From positions 1-64,000 of IMG/VR virus record IMGVR_UViG_3300031456_000002: DNA of 64,000 nucleotides; one strand, given 5' to 3'. The position numbers were made by a program, and so were the translations under genes. This DNA is from a virus. A model generated the notes under the pieces. The model was not told the origin of the DNA. It did not search any database and saw nothing but the letters and a program-made list of their open reading frames with translations. Positions 2,106-33,945 of the stretch are shown in pieces; positions within the stretch are counted from its first letter, which is position 1; each line of letters begins with the position of its first letter.

Positions 2106-5096
2106 CTACAGCAGGGAACCCGTTTCTTTACTATCGATTGCTCTGTCAATTTCCCATACAATATCCGGCGACATCATTCCGCCTCGTGACATTTGTTGTG
2201 CATTAAATATGGCCATCATGCTATCAAACATATCTAATCGGGCTGCCATTAATTGGTTTTGGCTTCTCAGTCCTTTTATTTCATTACTTGCTCTTTGTAG
2301 AAGTTCTTTGTTATCCATTTTGTTTATGATTATTTAGTTAAGAATGAGTTACTGTGCCGTAGTTTTTCAAAAAGTCGTTGTACTCTATTGGAAGATGGCC
2401 TTCGATAACAATATATTTGGCGGTTATTTTATCAGGGGACTGGGATGTAAATCGTTCCTCTACCCTGGCATTGTATTCTTTGCCGGATACGTTTGCTTTT
2501 ACGTTATCTCTATGCTTTATAGTACAGGTTGTATCCGTGTAGGTTATCATGATTAATCAATTTGCGGGACGTATGCGTAATCGATAAATACTATTTGCAG
2601 GTTATCATGATCCTTGTATGTGTTTTTTAATGACCATTCAAGAACCCTTTTATCCTTATTGCATTGTGCTGTTTTCCAAAAGAATAAGGCGCAAGTTGGA
2701 TCACCATCTTCACATAGCCAGAAGTTATCTCTCTTTATTACTAAACCGTCTTTAGGTTCTGTTACATCTTTGGTATGATACTTTACCTTCCTGGCTTGTT
2801 GTAGTTCTTCTGACATGTTGTTTTTATTTATTCGTTATCCGTTATATTTTTTACCGTATGCTTTTCCCATTGTTCGAGTGCTTCCATTGCATCTGGTTCG
2901 CATTCATGAAGGCGTTTCCATAAGTCATTCTTAACGGCATCATCTCCTTCAGCCCATTTGTTAAGCATATTGACCTGGGCTTTTACATACTTGACGAGCG
3001 CATAGTATAGTTTATCTGCACTATCTTTTACTTGTTCTTCTGGTATCATTTGTTTTCATTTTGTTGTTCAATGAATTGGTTATGAAGTTGTTCAGTGGTT
3101 ATAGAGTCGCTGGCATCATTGATACTTGTCCACTGGTTTTCATCTGTGCAGGAGTACTGACAGTCGCTTTCTAATGTCCAATTCATGAATGCAATAGCTT
3201 GTTGCCTTCCCCATATATCCATTGCTTTTTCTGCTGCTGAATAAGGGATTACCGCCTCGCTCTCGTCACATTTCCATGCGTATTTAAGATGTGGGTCTAA
3301 TAAAGTCTCTTTAGTCATGGTTGAATGGTTATTTTTCAATTAGTTATGTTATTTATCGATCAGGGTCAGGATTATAGTTGCCTTCTTCATCATAGTAATC
3401 TTGACCGGCTGAAATAAAGTCTGCGGCTACTACACACATGTTGAATTTAGCAGCATTCAATATTTTTTGTACTGTTATAATCTGTTGGTTAGTAAATCCC
3501 TCTAGCTTAAACAAGTCAGTAGCGAATACATTGTCTTGATTTCTGTCCAAAAATTCGTAAACGAAATTAAAAAGATACCTGCCGCTTTCATTGAAATTCT
3601 CCCATACCTTTTCGGTCACATTAAACTTGTTTTCTTCGTATATCTTAGGAGGCATTGAAATTGCGCTTTTTATTATATCATCTCCTTCCTCTGGCATGTT
3701 ATTGTTATTTATGATGTAACTTCTTGATAGATAGAGTAATCGCAATACCATTTGTCGCCCGGATTACGCATTTCTTCAGCATCCTCCTTTGCTTGTTCAT
3801 AAGTCGAATATACTTCCAAGAAATCATGATCACTTAGGCTCAAATGAGGTTCTTTCAGCCCATGCCTCCATACTATTATGTATCCCATTGATTTATAGTG
3901 ATTTAATAAATAGATCGTATAATTGTTCAGTGGCCGGATACGATGGTGGCTCATGTCGGCCCCAAGTTTCGTTCTCTCCCCAATTAGTTTCATTGATCCA
4001 TTCGGCAAATGCCATGGCTAATCTCTTTGCATGCATATCCATGGTTTCCTGCACTAGCTTTATATCTAGGAATGCTTTTTTATTGGGAGGTACGACAGCC
4101 ATGTGTTATTTTATGAATAATGACTAAATACTAACATTTGTGGCTCATCTTCTTCCAGGTCATCGTAAATAGCATCACCGAATAACTCCCTGAACTTAGC
4201 GGTAACCCTCTCACGTTCATCATCGTCAAAGAAATCCCGATATGAAATTGTTGTGAATCCTGTTCCTTGATGTTCTTCTGCTTTATTGATCAATTTACCA
4301 AACACAACATACTCGCCACTCATGCCATCATAAACAATTATATCCGTCACTCCTTTGTGACCTTCGACATATGGTAAATATTTATCTGCCCATATATCTA
4401 TCCCGCTTTGCTTTAAGTCATTGGGCTTGAATTTGAAGCCATAAACGATGTAATCAGTTCTATCTACTCCCATAATTATTTATTTATTGTCATCCAGTGA
4501 TTCAAAAGTACCACCCAATTTCCTGTACATTATATCAAATGCTTGTTTAGCTTCTTTGCACGTTGTCGCTAATTTCCGATATGTGTGCAATCCGTTTCCT
4601 CCATCTATTTCAGTACAGGCATATATATCCCGTATTAATTCAGCTATTCTGGTATCTTCGGAAGTCCTTTCTACTGTTATTACCGGTGGCGGCCCTGGTG
4701 GGATTGAGTTATCCGAAAATCCCGGAGTACTTGTTTGATAGTTACAAACAAACTCCTTTACGCTGGTGAATGTTTCCATTGCCTTCTGGCTATCAAATGG
4801 AACGCCTACTTCCCAATCCAGTGTTACCCATTCTTTGAGCCCAATCGGGGTTATAAACTCCTTACTGAATTTTACTGTTCCTTGTTTCATGGATTTGTTT
4901 TTTCTGGTACATCATCAACACTATCATATCCATTAAGCAGTGTCTCTACTTCATCGTGAGGGCCATATCCTTTATCTAAAAGAACGATGGCATTATTTAA
5001 TTGCTCTGCGCCTATTTTGTCACTAATGCCCGGGATTTTCTGTTCTACTAAATTGAATTGTGCATTCATCAATGCCTCTAAAATTGTTACCGCCAT
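2106..5096 (-). other. array of about 11 small hypothetical early-type genes (e.g. 2106-2318, 2338-2550, 2553-2816, 2828-3049, 3046-3339, 3893-4102, 4111-4473, 4480-4890, 4887-5096)
   Basis: Tightly packed, often stop/start-overlapping minus-strand ORFs of 69-136 aa with AT-rich leaders. Confidence 0.7.
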
Positions 5097-5121
5097 AATT
5101 ATTGTTTTGTTGATTTGAAAT

Positions 5122-5154
5122 AAAAAGGGGTACGCTATACTAAATAGCCATCCC
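5122..5154 (-). terminator. intrinsic terminator closing the ncRNA cluster
   Basis: On the minus strand, the hairpin GGGATGGCTAT-TTAGT-ATAGCGTACCCC is followed by TTTTT. Confidence 0.55.
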
Positions 5155-5183
5155 TGACGATATTGCTTACCATATGAAAAAAG

Positions 5184-5262
5184 TTTATGCACCGATAGCT
5201 GTTTACGGATTTTAACCGTTTTAACATTTAGACGAATTTTGCGAACACTATCCGTACATAAA
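5184..5262 (-). ncRNA. stem-closed structured RNA module A with a T-arm-like hairpin
   Basis: TTTATGTACGGATAGT pairs with GCTATCGGTGCATAAA; the G-U pairs work on the minus strand. There is an internal ACGG-TTAAAAT-CCGT hairpin. Confidence 0.45.
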
Positions 5263-5265
5263 GAG

Positions 5266-5351
5266 TTTATTGATCATGGCCTGACTATTAGTCCAGACTG
5301 CACCCCTTTAACCGGTCACTAATACTGAATGTAGGTGGCATGGTCAATAAA
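5266..5351 (-). ncRNA. stem-closed structured RNA module B (strand uncertain)
   Basis: Terminal inverted repeat TTTATTGA(C/T)CATG of 13 nt, plus inner TATTAGT/ACTAATA pairing. Confidence 0.45.
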
Positions 5352-5360
5352 GAAATTAAT

Positions 5361-5445
5361 GTGTCGGGCTACGATTCGAACGTACTTCTTTACATCATGG
5401 GTGCGCTTTCCCACTTAGGACTTCCAAAGCTCCAAAGACCAAACA
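5361..5445 (-). ncRNA. degenerate tRNA-like element (module C)
   Basis: T-arm TACG-TTCGAAT-CGTA; imperfect acceptor TGTTTGG/CCCGACA; GGA...TCC D-like arm; 5-bp GTGGG/CCCAT stem with an 8-nt loop. Confidence 0.45.
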
Positions 5446-5452
5446 TTTAATA

Positions 5453-5627
5453 ATTGACGGATGCATGAACATAACTGATATCTCTTTGCGGCTGGTGAAC
5501 CACTATGGGATAATAACCGTCAGTAGCACCTATGCGAATATGATCGGGCAATTATTCACCTTGCAGACCCTGATTCGCGGGTTGTTCATTTTGCTAACGT
5601 TAGATATTTCTATCCACATCCGTCAAT
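5453..5627 (-). ncRNA. ~175-nt multi-stem structured RNA (module D)
   Basis: Nested pairings: 5453-5463/5617-5627 (11 bp perfect), 5465-5471/5583-5589 and 5494-5499/5555-5560. There is also a hairpin at 5567-5582. Confidence 0.6.
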
Positions 5628-5637
5628 ATATTTAATC

Positions 5638-5742
5638 AATGAGCGACAGGATTTGAACCTGCGAAGGTTCCCAGGAAAACGTACATCATAAGGGCCCCTT
5701 TTAGTTACGTATTCAGGCTTCAGCCAACTCGCCCACACTCAT
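5638..5742 (-). tRNA. tRNA-like RNA with canonical acceptor, D and T arms but an elongated non-canonical anticodon arm (module E)
   Basis: Acceptor ATGAGTG/CGCTCAT, U8, D arm GGC-GAGTTGGCTGAA-GCC, T arm GCAGG-TTCAAAT-CCTGT. The anticodon arm GAATACGTA/TACGTTTTC has a 22-nt loop. No CCA is encoded. Confidence 0.65.
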
Positions 5743-5774
5743 TAATATCTTTATATACTATTATTCAAAGAGCG

Positions 5775-5966
5775 TTATTCATCATCATACATACCATAAC
5801 CTTTCTTTTCCCGCCTAGTTAAGTCTTTCTTGTCGCCAAATGGGTCGTTCCAAGGTTTAAATGGATTATCGCTTTCCATTGGGTCATTGTGTGGTGAAAA
5901 TGGATCATCTTTGTGAATGGGGTCATTCCACGGCTGGAATGGATCATTGTTTCTTGGATAACTCAT
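5775..5966 (-). CDS. small repeat protein with three (D/N)PFxP(W/H)NDP units
   Basis: NDPFQPWNDP / DDPFSPHNDP / DNPFKPWNDP with a 13-aa period. Confidence 0.6.
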   Translation of the reverse strand: MSYPRNNDPFQPWNDPIHKDDPFSPHNDPMESDNPFKPWNDPFGDKKDLTRREKKGYGMYDDE

Positions 5967-5988
5967 ACGTTTATATTTTAAGAACTTA

Positions 5989-6116
5989 TATTCCCGGAAG
6001 GGGCCGGTTTACGTTCCGGCAACGGGCACCCCATTTTGTGTTTTCATCCCTGTAATAAGAATTGCCATATCCTTATTGTTTACCCGCTGACTCATGCGGT
6101 TTCACTCACTGGAATA
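5989..6116 (-). ncRNA. multi-hairpin structured RNA (module G)
   Basis: A TATTCC/GGAATA closing stem encloses CCGC/GCGG, AATAAGGA/TTCTTATT and GCCGG/CCGGC hairpins. The element is GC-rich in an AT-rich context. Confidence 0.5.
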
Positions 6117-6152
6117 GGGCAGACCGCTGTATCTTTGTAGCGACTAACTTAT

Positions 6153-6572
6153 TTAGGATACTATCCACCAATGATTAATATTCATATCAGCATCCCAGGG
6201 GATAGTTTCACCGGGAGACATTTGAGAAATCATTTCTAACACATGAGAATGAGAATAGTAAGGCCCACTAGAAGGTACTGTAAATACAAAAGTTTTCATA
6301 GAAGTAACTCCCCCGATCGTTGTTTCTATATCAATACTCAATTCCCATGTAGCTACCTGTGATCCTGATAAATCAAGAAAAAAGTAATATCCTGCAACCT
6401 GACCGGGATACCAATAGTCAGCATAGTAATATTCAGGGACATACCAATTGATTGTAACATCCTCAAAGGCTTCTTTAGCAACCACGCGTTCTTTGCCTCT
6501 TATATCCCACGGCGCAGCAATGGTTGACAATGCAATACAGGTAACGATAAATAACGAAACGATCTTTTTCAT
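6153..6572 (-). CDS. predicted secreted protein
   Basis: Sec-type signal MKKIVSLFIVTCIALSTIA|A followed by a beta-rich, aromatic mature part. Confidence 0.6.
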   Translation of the reverse strand: MKKIVSLFIVTCIALSTIAAPWDIRGKERVVAKEAFEDVTINWYVPEYYYADYWYPGQVAGYYFFLDLSGSQVATWELSIDIETTIGGVTSMKTFVFTVPSSGPYYSHSHVLEMISQMSPGETIPWDADMNINHWWIVS

Positions 6573-29639: not shown

Positions 29640-30656
29640 ATGCGATTCAGTATAATTTTCTGCCACTGGAAAACGGGCCCAATGTCAGCTTACACGGTTG
29701 CTCAAATATTAAAGTATAAAGGCAATCATGAAATCGAAATTTTAATCTGCGACAATAATGCAGGAGATGGAAGTATAAAATATCTTGAACCATTTAAAGA
29801 TGCAGTAAAGATATTCGACTACCCAAAAGATAAGCTGCAATCCCACGGTATCGGGTACGATGTTCTCTTTGAATTAGCACAGAATGAGTGGGTGATATGT
29901 TTGGAGAGCGACAGTTATCCCGTTAGGGATGGATTCTTAGACTACTATGTACGATTGATTAATCAAGGATACGATGGAGCTGTTTCCGTTCTTTCATTGA
30001 GTGGCGGCATTTACGGTCATCCAGCAGGAGGATTGTATAAGCGCAGCATTTGGGTAGAAGCATGGAAATATAGTAAAGAAATTGAGTATTATTATTTCCC
30101 GAACATGGGGATGAAAGATACGTTCGCTTGTCACATCATGGTGCATAAAAGTATAGTAAATGATTTCTTAGCCGAACCAGAAAACTATATTGAATTAGCC
30201 GATAATTATAAACCATACTATCCACAAAAGGCAGAACAAAAGGCTGCACATTATATGCCTACAGTCGGGCCAATGCATAATGGGATGGGGCGTTTGCAGG
30301 AATCATTAAAGACGTATGGTACCCGTAATCCAGAAAGTGAAATCCCTAATATCATATTAGATAATAGAGCAAAAATAATATACAGGATTGGCATGGAGCC
30401 GGGGCAACATCATTATTATTGGATGTTGGCGAAAGGGTATAAAATCTTTGGTATTCCCACCGAAGTTAAATGGCTGGAAGGGAAAGAAAATCAACAGCAA
30501 GAATATACGCTAAGTGCAGCTAGAATTAAGCACATTTGGGGAGTATCAGCCTATCATGGAACAGATTTAAACGATGGAGATGTAGCTAAGATCAAACAAA
30601 CTCTCCCTGAAACTTTGTACGAAACATTACCTGAACATCAAAAAATAAAAATTTAA
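29640..30656 (+). CDS. glycosyltransferase family 2 protein
   Basis: FSIIF, EILICDNNAGDGS, SHGIGYD and ICLESDSYP (DxD-like). Confidence 0.75.
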   Translation: MRFSIIFCHWKTGPMSAYTVAQILKYKGNHEIEILICDNNAGDGSIKYLEPFKDAVKIFDYPKDKLQSHGIGYDVLFELAQNEWVICLESDSYPVRDGFLDYYVRLINQGYDGAVSVLSLSGGIYGHPAGGLYKRSIWVEAWKYSKEIEYYYFPNMGMKDTFACHIMVHKSIVNDFLAEPENYIELADNYKPYYPQKAEQKAAHYMPTVGPMHNGMGRLQESLKTYGTRNPESEIPNIILDNRAKIIYRIGMEPGQHHYYWMLAKGYKIFGIPTEVKWLEGKENQQQEYTLSAARIKHIWGVSAYHGTDLNDGDVAKIKQTLPETLYETLPEHQKIKI

Positions 30657-32376: not shown

Positions 32377-33945
32377 ATGAACAAGAAGACGCTTTATGGA
32401 GCCGAAGCAAGGGCTAAGTTATTGTCAGGAGTTAAGAAAATCGCAGCAGCGGTCAAGGTGACCTTAGGCCCGATGGGTCGGAACGTTCTTATATCGCAAA
32501 GCATGGTTATTGATTATGGGGTGCATAATCTTCCCATCCATGTTACGAAAGACGGATATACGACTACTAGGGCGTTTGAGATCAATGATGATCCTTTTGA
32601 ACAAGCTGGCGTGTTAATGATAAAAGAAGCGGCTCAGAAATCAGTAGATCAGGCTGGTGACGGCACAACAACAACAGTGGTGTTAGCTGAGGCTATTGTT
32701 GAAAAGGCAATCGAAGCCATTGTCGCAGGAGGTAATCCAGTCGAGTTGAAGCGCAGTATTGATAAGGGGGTGCAGGAGGTAGTAGAACAGCTTAAGGGAA
32801 TGGCCATTCCTATTAAAGGGAATATTGATCGTATCCGACAAATCGCGACCATTTCGGCTAACAACGATTCGGCAATGGGGGAATTAATAGCAGATGCCTT
32901 TAGTAAAATAGGAGAAGAAGGGGTTATTGATCTTGAAAAAGGGCAATCAGTGAATACAGAAATAAGAATTGCCGATGGCTACAAATGGGATCAAAGTTGG
33001 GTAAGTCCTTATTTCATTAATAATAAGGAGAAGCAAATATGCGAATTCGAAAACCCTATTATTCTATTGTATGATAAAATGATAAAACATCATACTCAGA
33101 TTATAAGAGCCCTGGAGTTGATTCAGAAAAGCGGCAGACCGCTATTGATAGTTTGCGAAGATTCTATTGAAGAAGGGTTATCAACATTAGCGGTTAATAA
33201 TCTACAAGGACGATTCAAGATATGTGTAGTAAAATCCCCCGAGTTCAATGAAAAAAGAAGAGAAGCGATGGAGGATATTGCATTGATTACCGGCGCTACC
33301 TATATCAGCGATACGAAAGGCATTGATATAAAGGAAATGGAATTCGACCATTTTGGGCATGCAAAGAAGGTATTGGTAACGAAAGAAGAAACTGTTATTA
33401 TCGGAGGCGCGGGGAATAAGGAGGACTTGGAAAACCTTCTGAATGAACTGAAGATAAATATGGTTCAAGCAAAGAATGAAGACGAAAGTGCGCCTATCGA
33501 AAGAAGGATAGCGAAGTTAACAGGGGGAGTAGCTGTTATTTCAGTTGGAGCGGCTACGGAAACTGAAATGAAAGAGAAACTGGATAGATTTGATGATGCC
33601 GTAAGGGCTGTTAAAGCTGCATTGAGTGAAGGATTTATCGTTGGTGGCGGCACAGCCTTTTTACGGGTAAAAACTTCAAGTGATATAATAAATAGCATAC
33701 TTCGTATTCCTCTATGGCAAATTTGTAGCAACGCTGGCAAAGAAAGTTCCGCTGATCGTATTATACATGATGTAGAATCTTTCAAAAACAATGTTGGGTA
33801 TAACGCCAAAACTGATCAAATCGTAGACTTGATTGATGCTGGGGTTATTGACCCGGCTAAAGTGTTGAGATGTGCTATTACTAATGCAGCTTCGAGCGCA
33901 GGTATGATCATTACGACTGAGGCTCTTATTTGTGACACTATGTAA
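32377..33945 (+). CDS. groEL: chaperonin GroEL
   Basis: VKVTLGPMGRNV, VTKDG, AGDGTTT, AKLTGGVAVI and GVIDPAKV. Confidence 0.95.
   Translation: MNKKTLYGAEARAKLLSGVKKIAAAVKVTLGPMGRNVLISQSMVIDYGVHNLPIHVTKDGYTTTRAFEINDDPFEQAGVLMIKEAAQKSVDQAGDGTTTTVVLAEAIVEKAIEAIVAGGNPVELKRSIDKGVQEVVEQLKGMAIPIKGNIDRIRQIATISANNDSAMGELIADAFSKIGEEGVIDLEKGQSVNTEIRIADGYKWDQSWVSPYFINNKEKQICEFENPIILLYDKMIKHHTQIIRALELIQKSGRPLLIVCEDSIEEGLSTLAVNNLQGRFKICVVKSPEFNEKRREAMEDIALITGATYISDTKGIDIKEMEFDHFGHAKKVLVTKEETVIIGGAGNKEDLENLLNELKINMVQAKNEDESAPIERRIAKLTGGVAVISVGAATETEMKEKLDRFDDAVRAVKAALSEGFIVGGGTAFLRVKTSSDIINSILRIPLWQICSNAGKESSADRIIHDVESFKNNVGYNAKTDQIVDLIDAGVIDPAKVLRCAITNAASSAGMIITTEALICDTM

Follow-up and report, generated by a model that had tools for sequence, protein, structure and literature searches.

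The question raised by this locus is whether a tRNA-shaped element in a phage genome, intact in its acceptor, D, variable, and T arms and elongated in its anticodon arm, is a working tRNA gene, a broken one, or a small RNA kept for something other than decoding. The element is 105 nt long (positions 5638 to 5742, minus strand) and lies in a 64-kb window, the whole stretch of DNA that we analyzed, which is the first part of a 78,380-bp IMG/VR record that CheckV rates as complete. The phage has a GC content of ~38%, and its gene set includes a RecA/UvsX-like recombinase, a primase-polymerase, GroEL, a portal protein, and a large terminase that is only 25% identical to Flavobacterium/Cellulophaga podophage terminases. 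Its DNA is contained in a single sequencing run of a root metagenome, and no tyrosine or serine recombinase was found in the phage genome (PF00589 and PF00239 negative). Because of these genes, the distant podophage terminase, the root source, and the lack of a recombinase, it looks like a lytic soil or root phage of a Bacteroidota host. The genetic code is standard, with very long intact open reading frames (ORFs), so a suppressor role for the element is not called for. An assembly error is also unlikely, since a Logan contig, a separate assembly of the same root-metagenome run, is identical over positions 5000-6500 at a depth of 87 with zero variants, although it derives from the same data and is not independent support.

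The first-pass annotation of this DNA had described a tRNA mimic with a 7-bp acceptor stem, U8, a D arm with GG, and a T loop of TTCAAAT, all of which are present in the sequence. Read along the RNA from its 5′ end, with the parts of the elongated arm given separately, the element consists of the following features.

5736 to 5742, minus strand: 5′ strand of the acceptor stem (tRNA positions 1 to 7), beginning with A1 rather than G1 and pairing at 7/7 positions (one G-U) with 5639-5645
5716 to 5735, minus strand: U8, G9, and a class-II D arm, read from the sequence as a 3-bp stem and a 12-nt loop with A14, G15, G18 G19, and A21
5675 to 5714, minus strand: elongated anticodon arm, 40 nt, made up of 3 bp, a U-U mismatch, 5 bp, and a 22-nt loop
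5710-5714 with 5675-5679, minus strand: original 5-bp anticodon stem (one U-U)
5706-5709 with 5680-5683, minus strand: 4-bp extension of the anticodon stem
5684 to 5705, minus strand: 22-nt loop of the anticodon arm, with a 4-bp apical AAGG/CCTT hairpin (3-nt loop) above a 5x6 internal loop
5680 to 5685, minus strand: what is left of a tRNA-Tyr anticodon loop, U33-G34-U35-A36, with C and G next in place of the A37 and A38 of tRNA-Tyr
5663 to 5674, minus strand: variable region, 12 nt, of the bacterial tRNA-Tyr type, ending in C48, the partner of G15
5646 to 5662, minus strand: T arm with a 5-bp stem (G49-U65 wobble) and the loop TTCAAAT, including G53-C61 and T54-A58
5638 to 5645, minus strand: 3′ strand of the acceptor stem and discriminator U73, with no encoded CCA

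The partners of the tertiary contacts are all present in the element (U8-A14, G15-C48, G18/G19 with the T loop, T54-A58, and G53-C61). Its terminal acceptor pair is A1-U72, and the inverted repeat I7 lengthens the acceptor pairing from 7 to 8-9 bp; the variable stem is weak, at 2 bp. The 9-bp anticodon stem with one mismatch, the 22-nt loop, and the inner AAGG/CCTT hairpin that had been reported earlier were confirmed both in the sequence and by folding the arm alone, which gave -7.8 kcal/mol. The arm is also an imperfect 23-nt palindrome (I1), and 30 nt separate the two strands of the original anticodon stem, where 7 are expected, leaving 23 extra nucleotides. When we looked for the insert loop as a repeat or mobile element, its sequence occurred once within the window. 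When the 30-nt segment is shuffled, 0.4% of the shuffles give a 4-bp Watson-Crick extension directly on top of the stem (P ~0.004); the stability of the whole arm is ordinary, with 18% of shuffles folding equally well, and the minimum-energy fold of the element is not a cloverleaf (z = -0.5).

For tRNA detection we used ARAGORN and Infernal with Rfam, and the likeness to a tRNA exceeds what chance would give. The element scores 27.9 bits against the Rfam tRNA model (RF00005), below the gathering cut-off of 29, with E values of 7.7e-4 in a 401-nt search and 3.6e-5 across the whole genome, and it is the single match to this model in the entire 78-kb genome, even at E values up to 10. The D arm aligns to the model at high posterior probability, and the alignment jumps 40 nt, which is exactly the anticodon arm. 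ARAGORN in its default mode calls no tRNA at the element, while its intron mode reports tRNA-Tyr(GTA) with a 23-nt insert. Among other Rfam families, including GOLLD, ROOL, and YrlA, none was found over positions 4900-6300, where nothing besides the tRNA model matched at E values up to 10. A tmRNA or a Y-RNA-like YrlA is not supported, since ARAGORN -m finds no tmRNA and Rfam gives no match beyond tRNA in that E-value range.

From these features we conclude that the element cannot decode. A canonical 5-bp stem with a 7-nt loop bearing U33 and a purine at position 37 is absent from it; the stem has 4 bp too many, the loop is 22 nt, and the anticodon is buried. U35, A36, and the next C are base paired inside the stem extension, so that GUA lies buried against UAC. 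Bacterial TyrRS requires A73, accessible G34 and U35, and a class-II variable arm. The element has the variable arm, with U73 and a paired U35. The view that the tRNA shape is intact at the elbow and unable to decode is therefore supported.

We also found that the element carries the signature of a particular isotype. It was compared by BLAST with 401 Bacteroidota genomes, and ARAGORN was then run on the matching loci. Over 26-28 nt, its variable and T arms match Bacteroidota genes that ARAGORN calls tRNA-Tyr(GTA) at 92-93% identity; few of the sampled genomes carry this variable arm. It is bacteria that have a long variable arm in their tRNA-Tyr. The anticodon loop of host tRNA-Tyr reads CTGTAAA, and the element retains TGTA on the 3′ side of its loop, followed by CG; where the host tRNA has A73, the element has U73. 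The likeness is mosaic, with hardly any similarity to host tRNA-Tyr in the acceptor, the D stem, or the anticodon stem. In addition, many Bacteroidota have tRNA-Pro genes that match a 22-nt stretch covering the T arm and flanking bases (window positions 5646-5664) without a difference, and near-identical T arms occur in tRNA-Tyr and in the tRNA-Pro genes of Vibrio and Streptomyces phages. The assignment to Tyr thus follows from the variable- and T-arm match to tRNA-Tyr(GTA) together with the TGTA retained in the loop. The D arm had been described as Ser/Leu type; the D loop (GAGTTGGCTGAA) is indeed Ser-like and not of the Leu type, and the isotype is Tyr by the match to Bacteroidota tRNA-Tyr. 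Judged by sequence, the element is a homologue of bacterial class-II tRNA-Tyr(GUA), and this Tyr-type origin is new. We hold it to be very probably both tRNA-Tyr-derived and non-decoding.

The surroundings of the element are unusual as well. It lies within an ~16-kb arm of small leftward genes and opens the largest ORF-free gap of the genome (5193-5774), with 32 nt between it and the stop of the upstream ORF and 10 nt between it and the module that follows. That upstream ORF (63 codons, 5775-5966, minus strand) contains repeated (W/H)NDP-like motifs and has no PHROG match. Four modules follow the element head to tail (5184-5627).

5453-5627, minus strand: stem-closed module 1
~5361-5445, minus strand: stem-closed module 2
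5266-5351, minus strand: stem-closed module 3
5184-5262, minus strand: stem-closed module 4

The ends of these modules are paired over 11-15 nt, with inverted repeats I5 (11/11), I3 (12/13), and I2 (13/15), and they have short, similar A/T-rich 3′ spacers. Four long inverted repeats were seen in the gap, compared to 0.87 expected, a count reached in 6/200 resamples (P ~0.03). The four modules gave no match to the tRNA model at E values up to 10 and match no Rfam family. A search of positions 5180-5640 against 121 Bacteroidota genomes returned scattered chance matches only, so by this test the modules are not tRNA-derived. We consider that the genomic context of the element favors a function.

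To find homologues of the element, we searched several sequence collections. Near and distant DNA searches of cultured phages gave either no match or just the T arm of tRNA-Pro. Pattern scans of IMG/VR built on the T arm plus acceptor, on the D loop to T loop with long spacing, and on the host-type variable arm recovered no homologue, nor did a scan for Tyr/Ser-type D loops with long spacing, among the matches listed. Scans of JGI metagenomes also yielded none, the matches being normal tRNA-Tyr genes or unrelated insert-bearing class-II genes, mostly Leu(CAA), and 185,579 species genomes (one per species) held nothing relevant to the element. These negative results hold for the patterns and BLAST modes tried. 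No relatives of the proteins encoded on either side (139 and 136 amino acids) were found in IMG/VR, a PHROG comparison of the neighbors was uninformative, and literature searches found no description of such an element.

The same was true of the closest relatives of this phage. Of the four closest RecA relatives, examined as whole genomes, G002 alone has a left arm; that arm is a different one and lacks a homologue of the element. In the other three (G001, G003, and G004; L002, L004, and L005) the contig breaks off upstream of recA, at a distance of 170-290 nt, and none of the left-arm genes of this phage was found anywhere in them; one of them, G004, has inverted terminal repeats. The left arm is thus either a hypervariable accessory region or beyond the genome end in these relatives. 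An ORF-free stretch of the left arm of G002 (RecA, 73%) contains a weak tRNA-like sequence of 21 bits (L049:1501-1573, corresponding to G002 67390-67462), whose 8-nt anticodon loop bears CAT and whose T loop, GTCGTAG, is non-canonical. Odd anticodon arms also occur in the single tRNAs of other RecA relatives (L048:1499-1575, L035:16350-16426, and L033:16988-17061), across which we saw, once each, a 6-bp stem with the loop TTACTAA, the anticodon ACT, and a 6-nt loop.

As no homologue with the long arm was found in the collections searched, there is no covariation and hence no proof of selection, and selection for the shape of the long arm, which had been proposed when the locus was first described, is unproven and can be argued only from intactness and context. 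The intact core, the 4-bp extension, and the setting speak for it, and the lack of homologues and of covariation speaks against it.

Taking these observations together, we favor, with a probability of roughly 0.5, the reading that the element is a phage descendant of class-II tRNA-Tyr(GUA) that has been kept as a non-decoding, tRNA-shaped small RNA; a functional mimic and a processing handle, taken jointly, stand at about even odds. The element would be transcribed with the leftward early or accessory genes, and its acceptor/T-arm minihelix would allow it to be cut out by host RNase P and 3′-end enzymes, an excision that would also set the 63-codon ORF on its upstream side apart from the stem-closed RNAs that follow. 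Once freed, the RNA would stay out of translation, its anticodon arm being too long, its anticodon not free, and its discriminator U73 instead of A73. Its most likely role, which is speculative, would be to pass for host tRNA-Tyr with proteins that recognize the elbow and variable arm; it might, for instance, be a sponge for defense nucleases that cut tRNA-Tyr, of the PtuAB (Septu/retron) kind. At a minimum, it may serve as the processing handle of an RNA array.

The alternative that survives best, and that we regard as a real if somewhat doubtful possibility, is a dead gene, in which a phage tRNA-Tyr was disrupted by a 23-nt insertion, or by expansion of a quasi-palindrome, within its anticodon loop, so recently that little else has decayed, and which now has no function. 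Several defects fit such a relic (the U-U mismatch, C37/G38, U73, the sub-cut-off score, and the absence of a cloverleaf from the minimum-energy fold), but 20/20 canonical stem pairs outside the anticodon stem and every base engaged in a tertiary contact are intact. The stability of the arm is not unusual, yet the added 30 nt lengthen the stem by 4 perfectly paired bp, with the low shuffling probability given above. A recent break is also consistent with the lack of homologues in the collections searched (cultured phages, IMG/VR, JGI metagenomes, and species genomes), with the absence of the element from the closest relatives, with flanking genes that are not conserved, and with the second defective tRNA-like sequence in the left arm of G002. 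Weighing on the other side, a compact lytic genome retains the element in its largest non-coding stretch, which looks organized and not decayed, and many phages demonstrably keep non-decoding tRNA-shaped RNAs.

Returning to a retained RNA, one specific role, which we consider unlikely, is that of a decoy of host tRNA-Tyr that soaks up or mis-triggers tRNA-Tyr-directed defense without disturbing translation. With its anticodon locked in a long helix and its discriminator changed, the decoy would be neither charged nor used by ribosomes, and it would form the first unit of a processed array of small anti-defense RNAs. A decoy for tRNA-targeting nucleases had been suggested before; the idea is still speculative and is now more specific, in that the host-like parts of the element are its variable and T arms, the variable loop being the place at which PtuAB-type Septu and retron nucleases cleave tRNA-Tyr. 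The same suggestion had extended to stringent-response sensors. Such sensing requires codon pairing on the ribosome, which makes that role unlikely. tRNA-Tyr is a known target of defense systems that is cut in the variable loop, and phage tRNA-Tyr counters this attack (PMC11555353, PMC13096335). For retron-Eco7, changing the anticodon of the phage tRNA-Tyr abolished rescue (PMC11555353), which points to supply rather than decoy in that system.

An improbable further reading is that the element is purely a processing signal, in which RNase P/RNase Z punctuation sets mRNA or RNA ends and the excised RNA has no role. RNase P and RNase Z need only an intact acceptor/T minihelix, which is present, and the placement of the element, past a stop codon (32 nt) and ahead of the next module (10 nt), suits such a mark. 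The host-like variable arm, the D arm, and the elongated arm are not needed for it, however, and 0/4 downstream modules carry a tRNA shape.

That the element is a working tRNA-Tyr gene with a short intron spliced out after transcription is, in our judgment, very improbable. The intron mode of ARAGORN describes it in just this way, as tRNA-Tyr(GTA) with a 23-nt intron, and its anticodon pairs with the insert, as in eukaryotic pre-tRNA-Tyr. But cutting out 23 nt gives only the 7-nt loops CUGUACG or AUGUACG, in which position 37 is C and positions 32 and 38 could pair, and we know of no decoding tRNA with both C37 and 32-38 pairing. The insert lies 5′ of the anticodon and not at position 37/38, and the 5x6 internal loop is symmetric in level, with no bulge-helix-bulge. 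Group I introns are, to our knowledge, the only intron type in bacterial tRNAs, and an insert of 23 nt is far below their size. The phage was searched for RtcB, an RNA ligase, and a splicing endonuclease with negative results (PF01974, PF01139, and PF09414), Pfam searches of 20 larger phage ORFs found no RNA-repair enzyme, and U73 stands in place of the A73 needed by bacterial TyrRS. The 15-nt intron-like insert that had earlier been left open is unlikely for the same reasons, as no excision gives a canonical loop, no bulge-helix-bulge is present, and the phage has no splicing enzyme.

Separately, the metagenome scans turned up six class-II tRNA genes (L153, L176, L179, L195, L210, and L231) in which the anticodon region is interrupted by 14-32 nt and the variable arm resembles that of tRNA-Tyr. 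ARAGORN in intron mode assigns three of them to Leu(CAA), with the insert after position 37, and the others to Arg or Pro; these loci may be genuine intron-bearing tRNAs of uncultured organisms. Another metagenome locus (L248) is a host-type tRNA-Tyr with a 17-nt tandem duplication in the D arm that is either real or an assembly artifact.

The least probable reading takes the element as a site that works at the DNA level (attP, or one for some other recombination or for replication) and merely happens to copy a portion of a host tRNA gene. It draws on the 22 nt identical to host tRNA-Pro, the 26-28 nt near-identical to tRNA-Tyr, and the abundance of inverted repeats in the region. Against it, neither a tyrosine nor a serine recombinase was found in the phage genome; the identity runs only 3 nt into the acceptor strand, so integration would break the host tRNA; and the 5′ half is complete, with an acceptor strand of its own that compensates, which an attP would not need. 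In the bacterial genomes searched, this phage was not seen integrated beside a tRNA-Tyr or tRNA-Pro gene.

What the element turns out to be bears on how phages use tRNAs, which are weapons against tRNA-cutting immunity, with tRNA-Tyr as a proven target. A non-decoding tRNA-Tyr body would separate supply from decoy as counter-defense strategies, and it would add a second, Tyr-based design to the tRNA-shaped stable RNAs of phages, known since T5 RNA1 and RNA2. If it is only a broken gene, it illustrates a phage tRNA shortly after its disruption, overlooked by tRNA finders in their default mode.

Among known RNAs, the nearest by descent is the tRNA-Tyr(GUA) of Bacteroidota, with which the element shares the class-II layout, the 12-nt variable region, the T arm, UGUA, and the tertiary bases. 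It differs in having 30 nt in place of the 7-nt loop, C37/G38, an unrelated acceptor, U73, and a Ser-like D loop. The tRNA-Tyr genes of T5 and T6, which rescue these phages from retron-Eco7 and Septu PtuAB, resemble it as phage-borne RNAs of the tRNA-Tyr type, but they decode, whereas the element cannot and so could only compete. Intron-bearing pre-tRNAs of archaea and eukaryotes likewise have extra anticodon-loop nucleotides that pair with the anticodon; they differ in the position of the insert, in their bulge-helix-bulge, and in the canonical loop left after excision, and the element sits in a bacterial phage. In the engineered tRNA scaffold, a recombinant RNA cargo replaces the anticodon loop on a lengthened stem and the tRNA body provides processing and stability. 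That scaffold is a laboratory design, whereas the element is natural and its cargo is only ~22 nt with no recognizable motif.

The closest parallels in kind come from other phages. RNA1 and RNA2 of T5 (30501-30644 and 32959-33083 in AY543070) are annotated as "tRNA-like stable RNA with unknown functions." Like the element, they are phage tRNA frames in which the anticodon region has been replaced, with the acceptor, D, and T arms intact and no anticodon loop. The layout is also alike, as RNA1 is directly followed by RNAI and RNAIII, much as the element is followed by its modules, and pairing between the two ends is seen in the folds of RNAI, RNAIV, and RNA2H, all stable RNAs of T5. RNA1 and RNA2 differ in being 125-144 nt long, in the Leu-type frame of RNA1, and in having lost both the anticodon and variable arms to a large insert, whereas the element has kept its anticodon stem and variable arm and gained 23 nt, and no sequence similarity between them was seen. 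A further tRNA-like sequence of the Leu type (L041:17357-17456, Rfam tRNA score of 33.8 bits) comes from a more distant RecA relative, a 124-kb phage contig in which a normal tRNA-Met follows it after 2 nt; in place of an anticodon arm it has a stem of ~9 bp (3 + 6, one mismatch) and a 6-nt loop.

In IMG/VR we found at least 96 distinct sequences of anticodon-less RNAs with a Leu frame (loci L266-L383). These have a constant tRNA-Leu top half, often with an identical acceptor, and an unrelated middle of 41-71 nt in place of the anticodon and variable arms; the middles are structurally heterogeneous, and ARAGORN calls none of these RNAs. They resemble the element in their intact acceptor, D, and T arms, in lacking an anticodon loop, and in residing in phage genomes, and one member of the family lies in a RecA-related phage. 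The Leu-frame and T5 type has a Leu-type D arm (of the GGAATTGGTAGAC type) that the element does not have, and the acceptor of the element is unrelated. With its Tyr frame and its retained anticodon stem and variable arm, the element is an analogue, and not a member, of this Leu-frame family.
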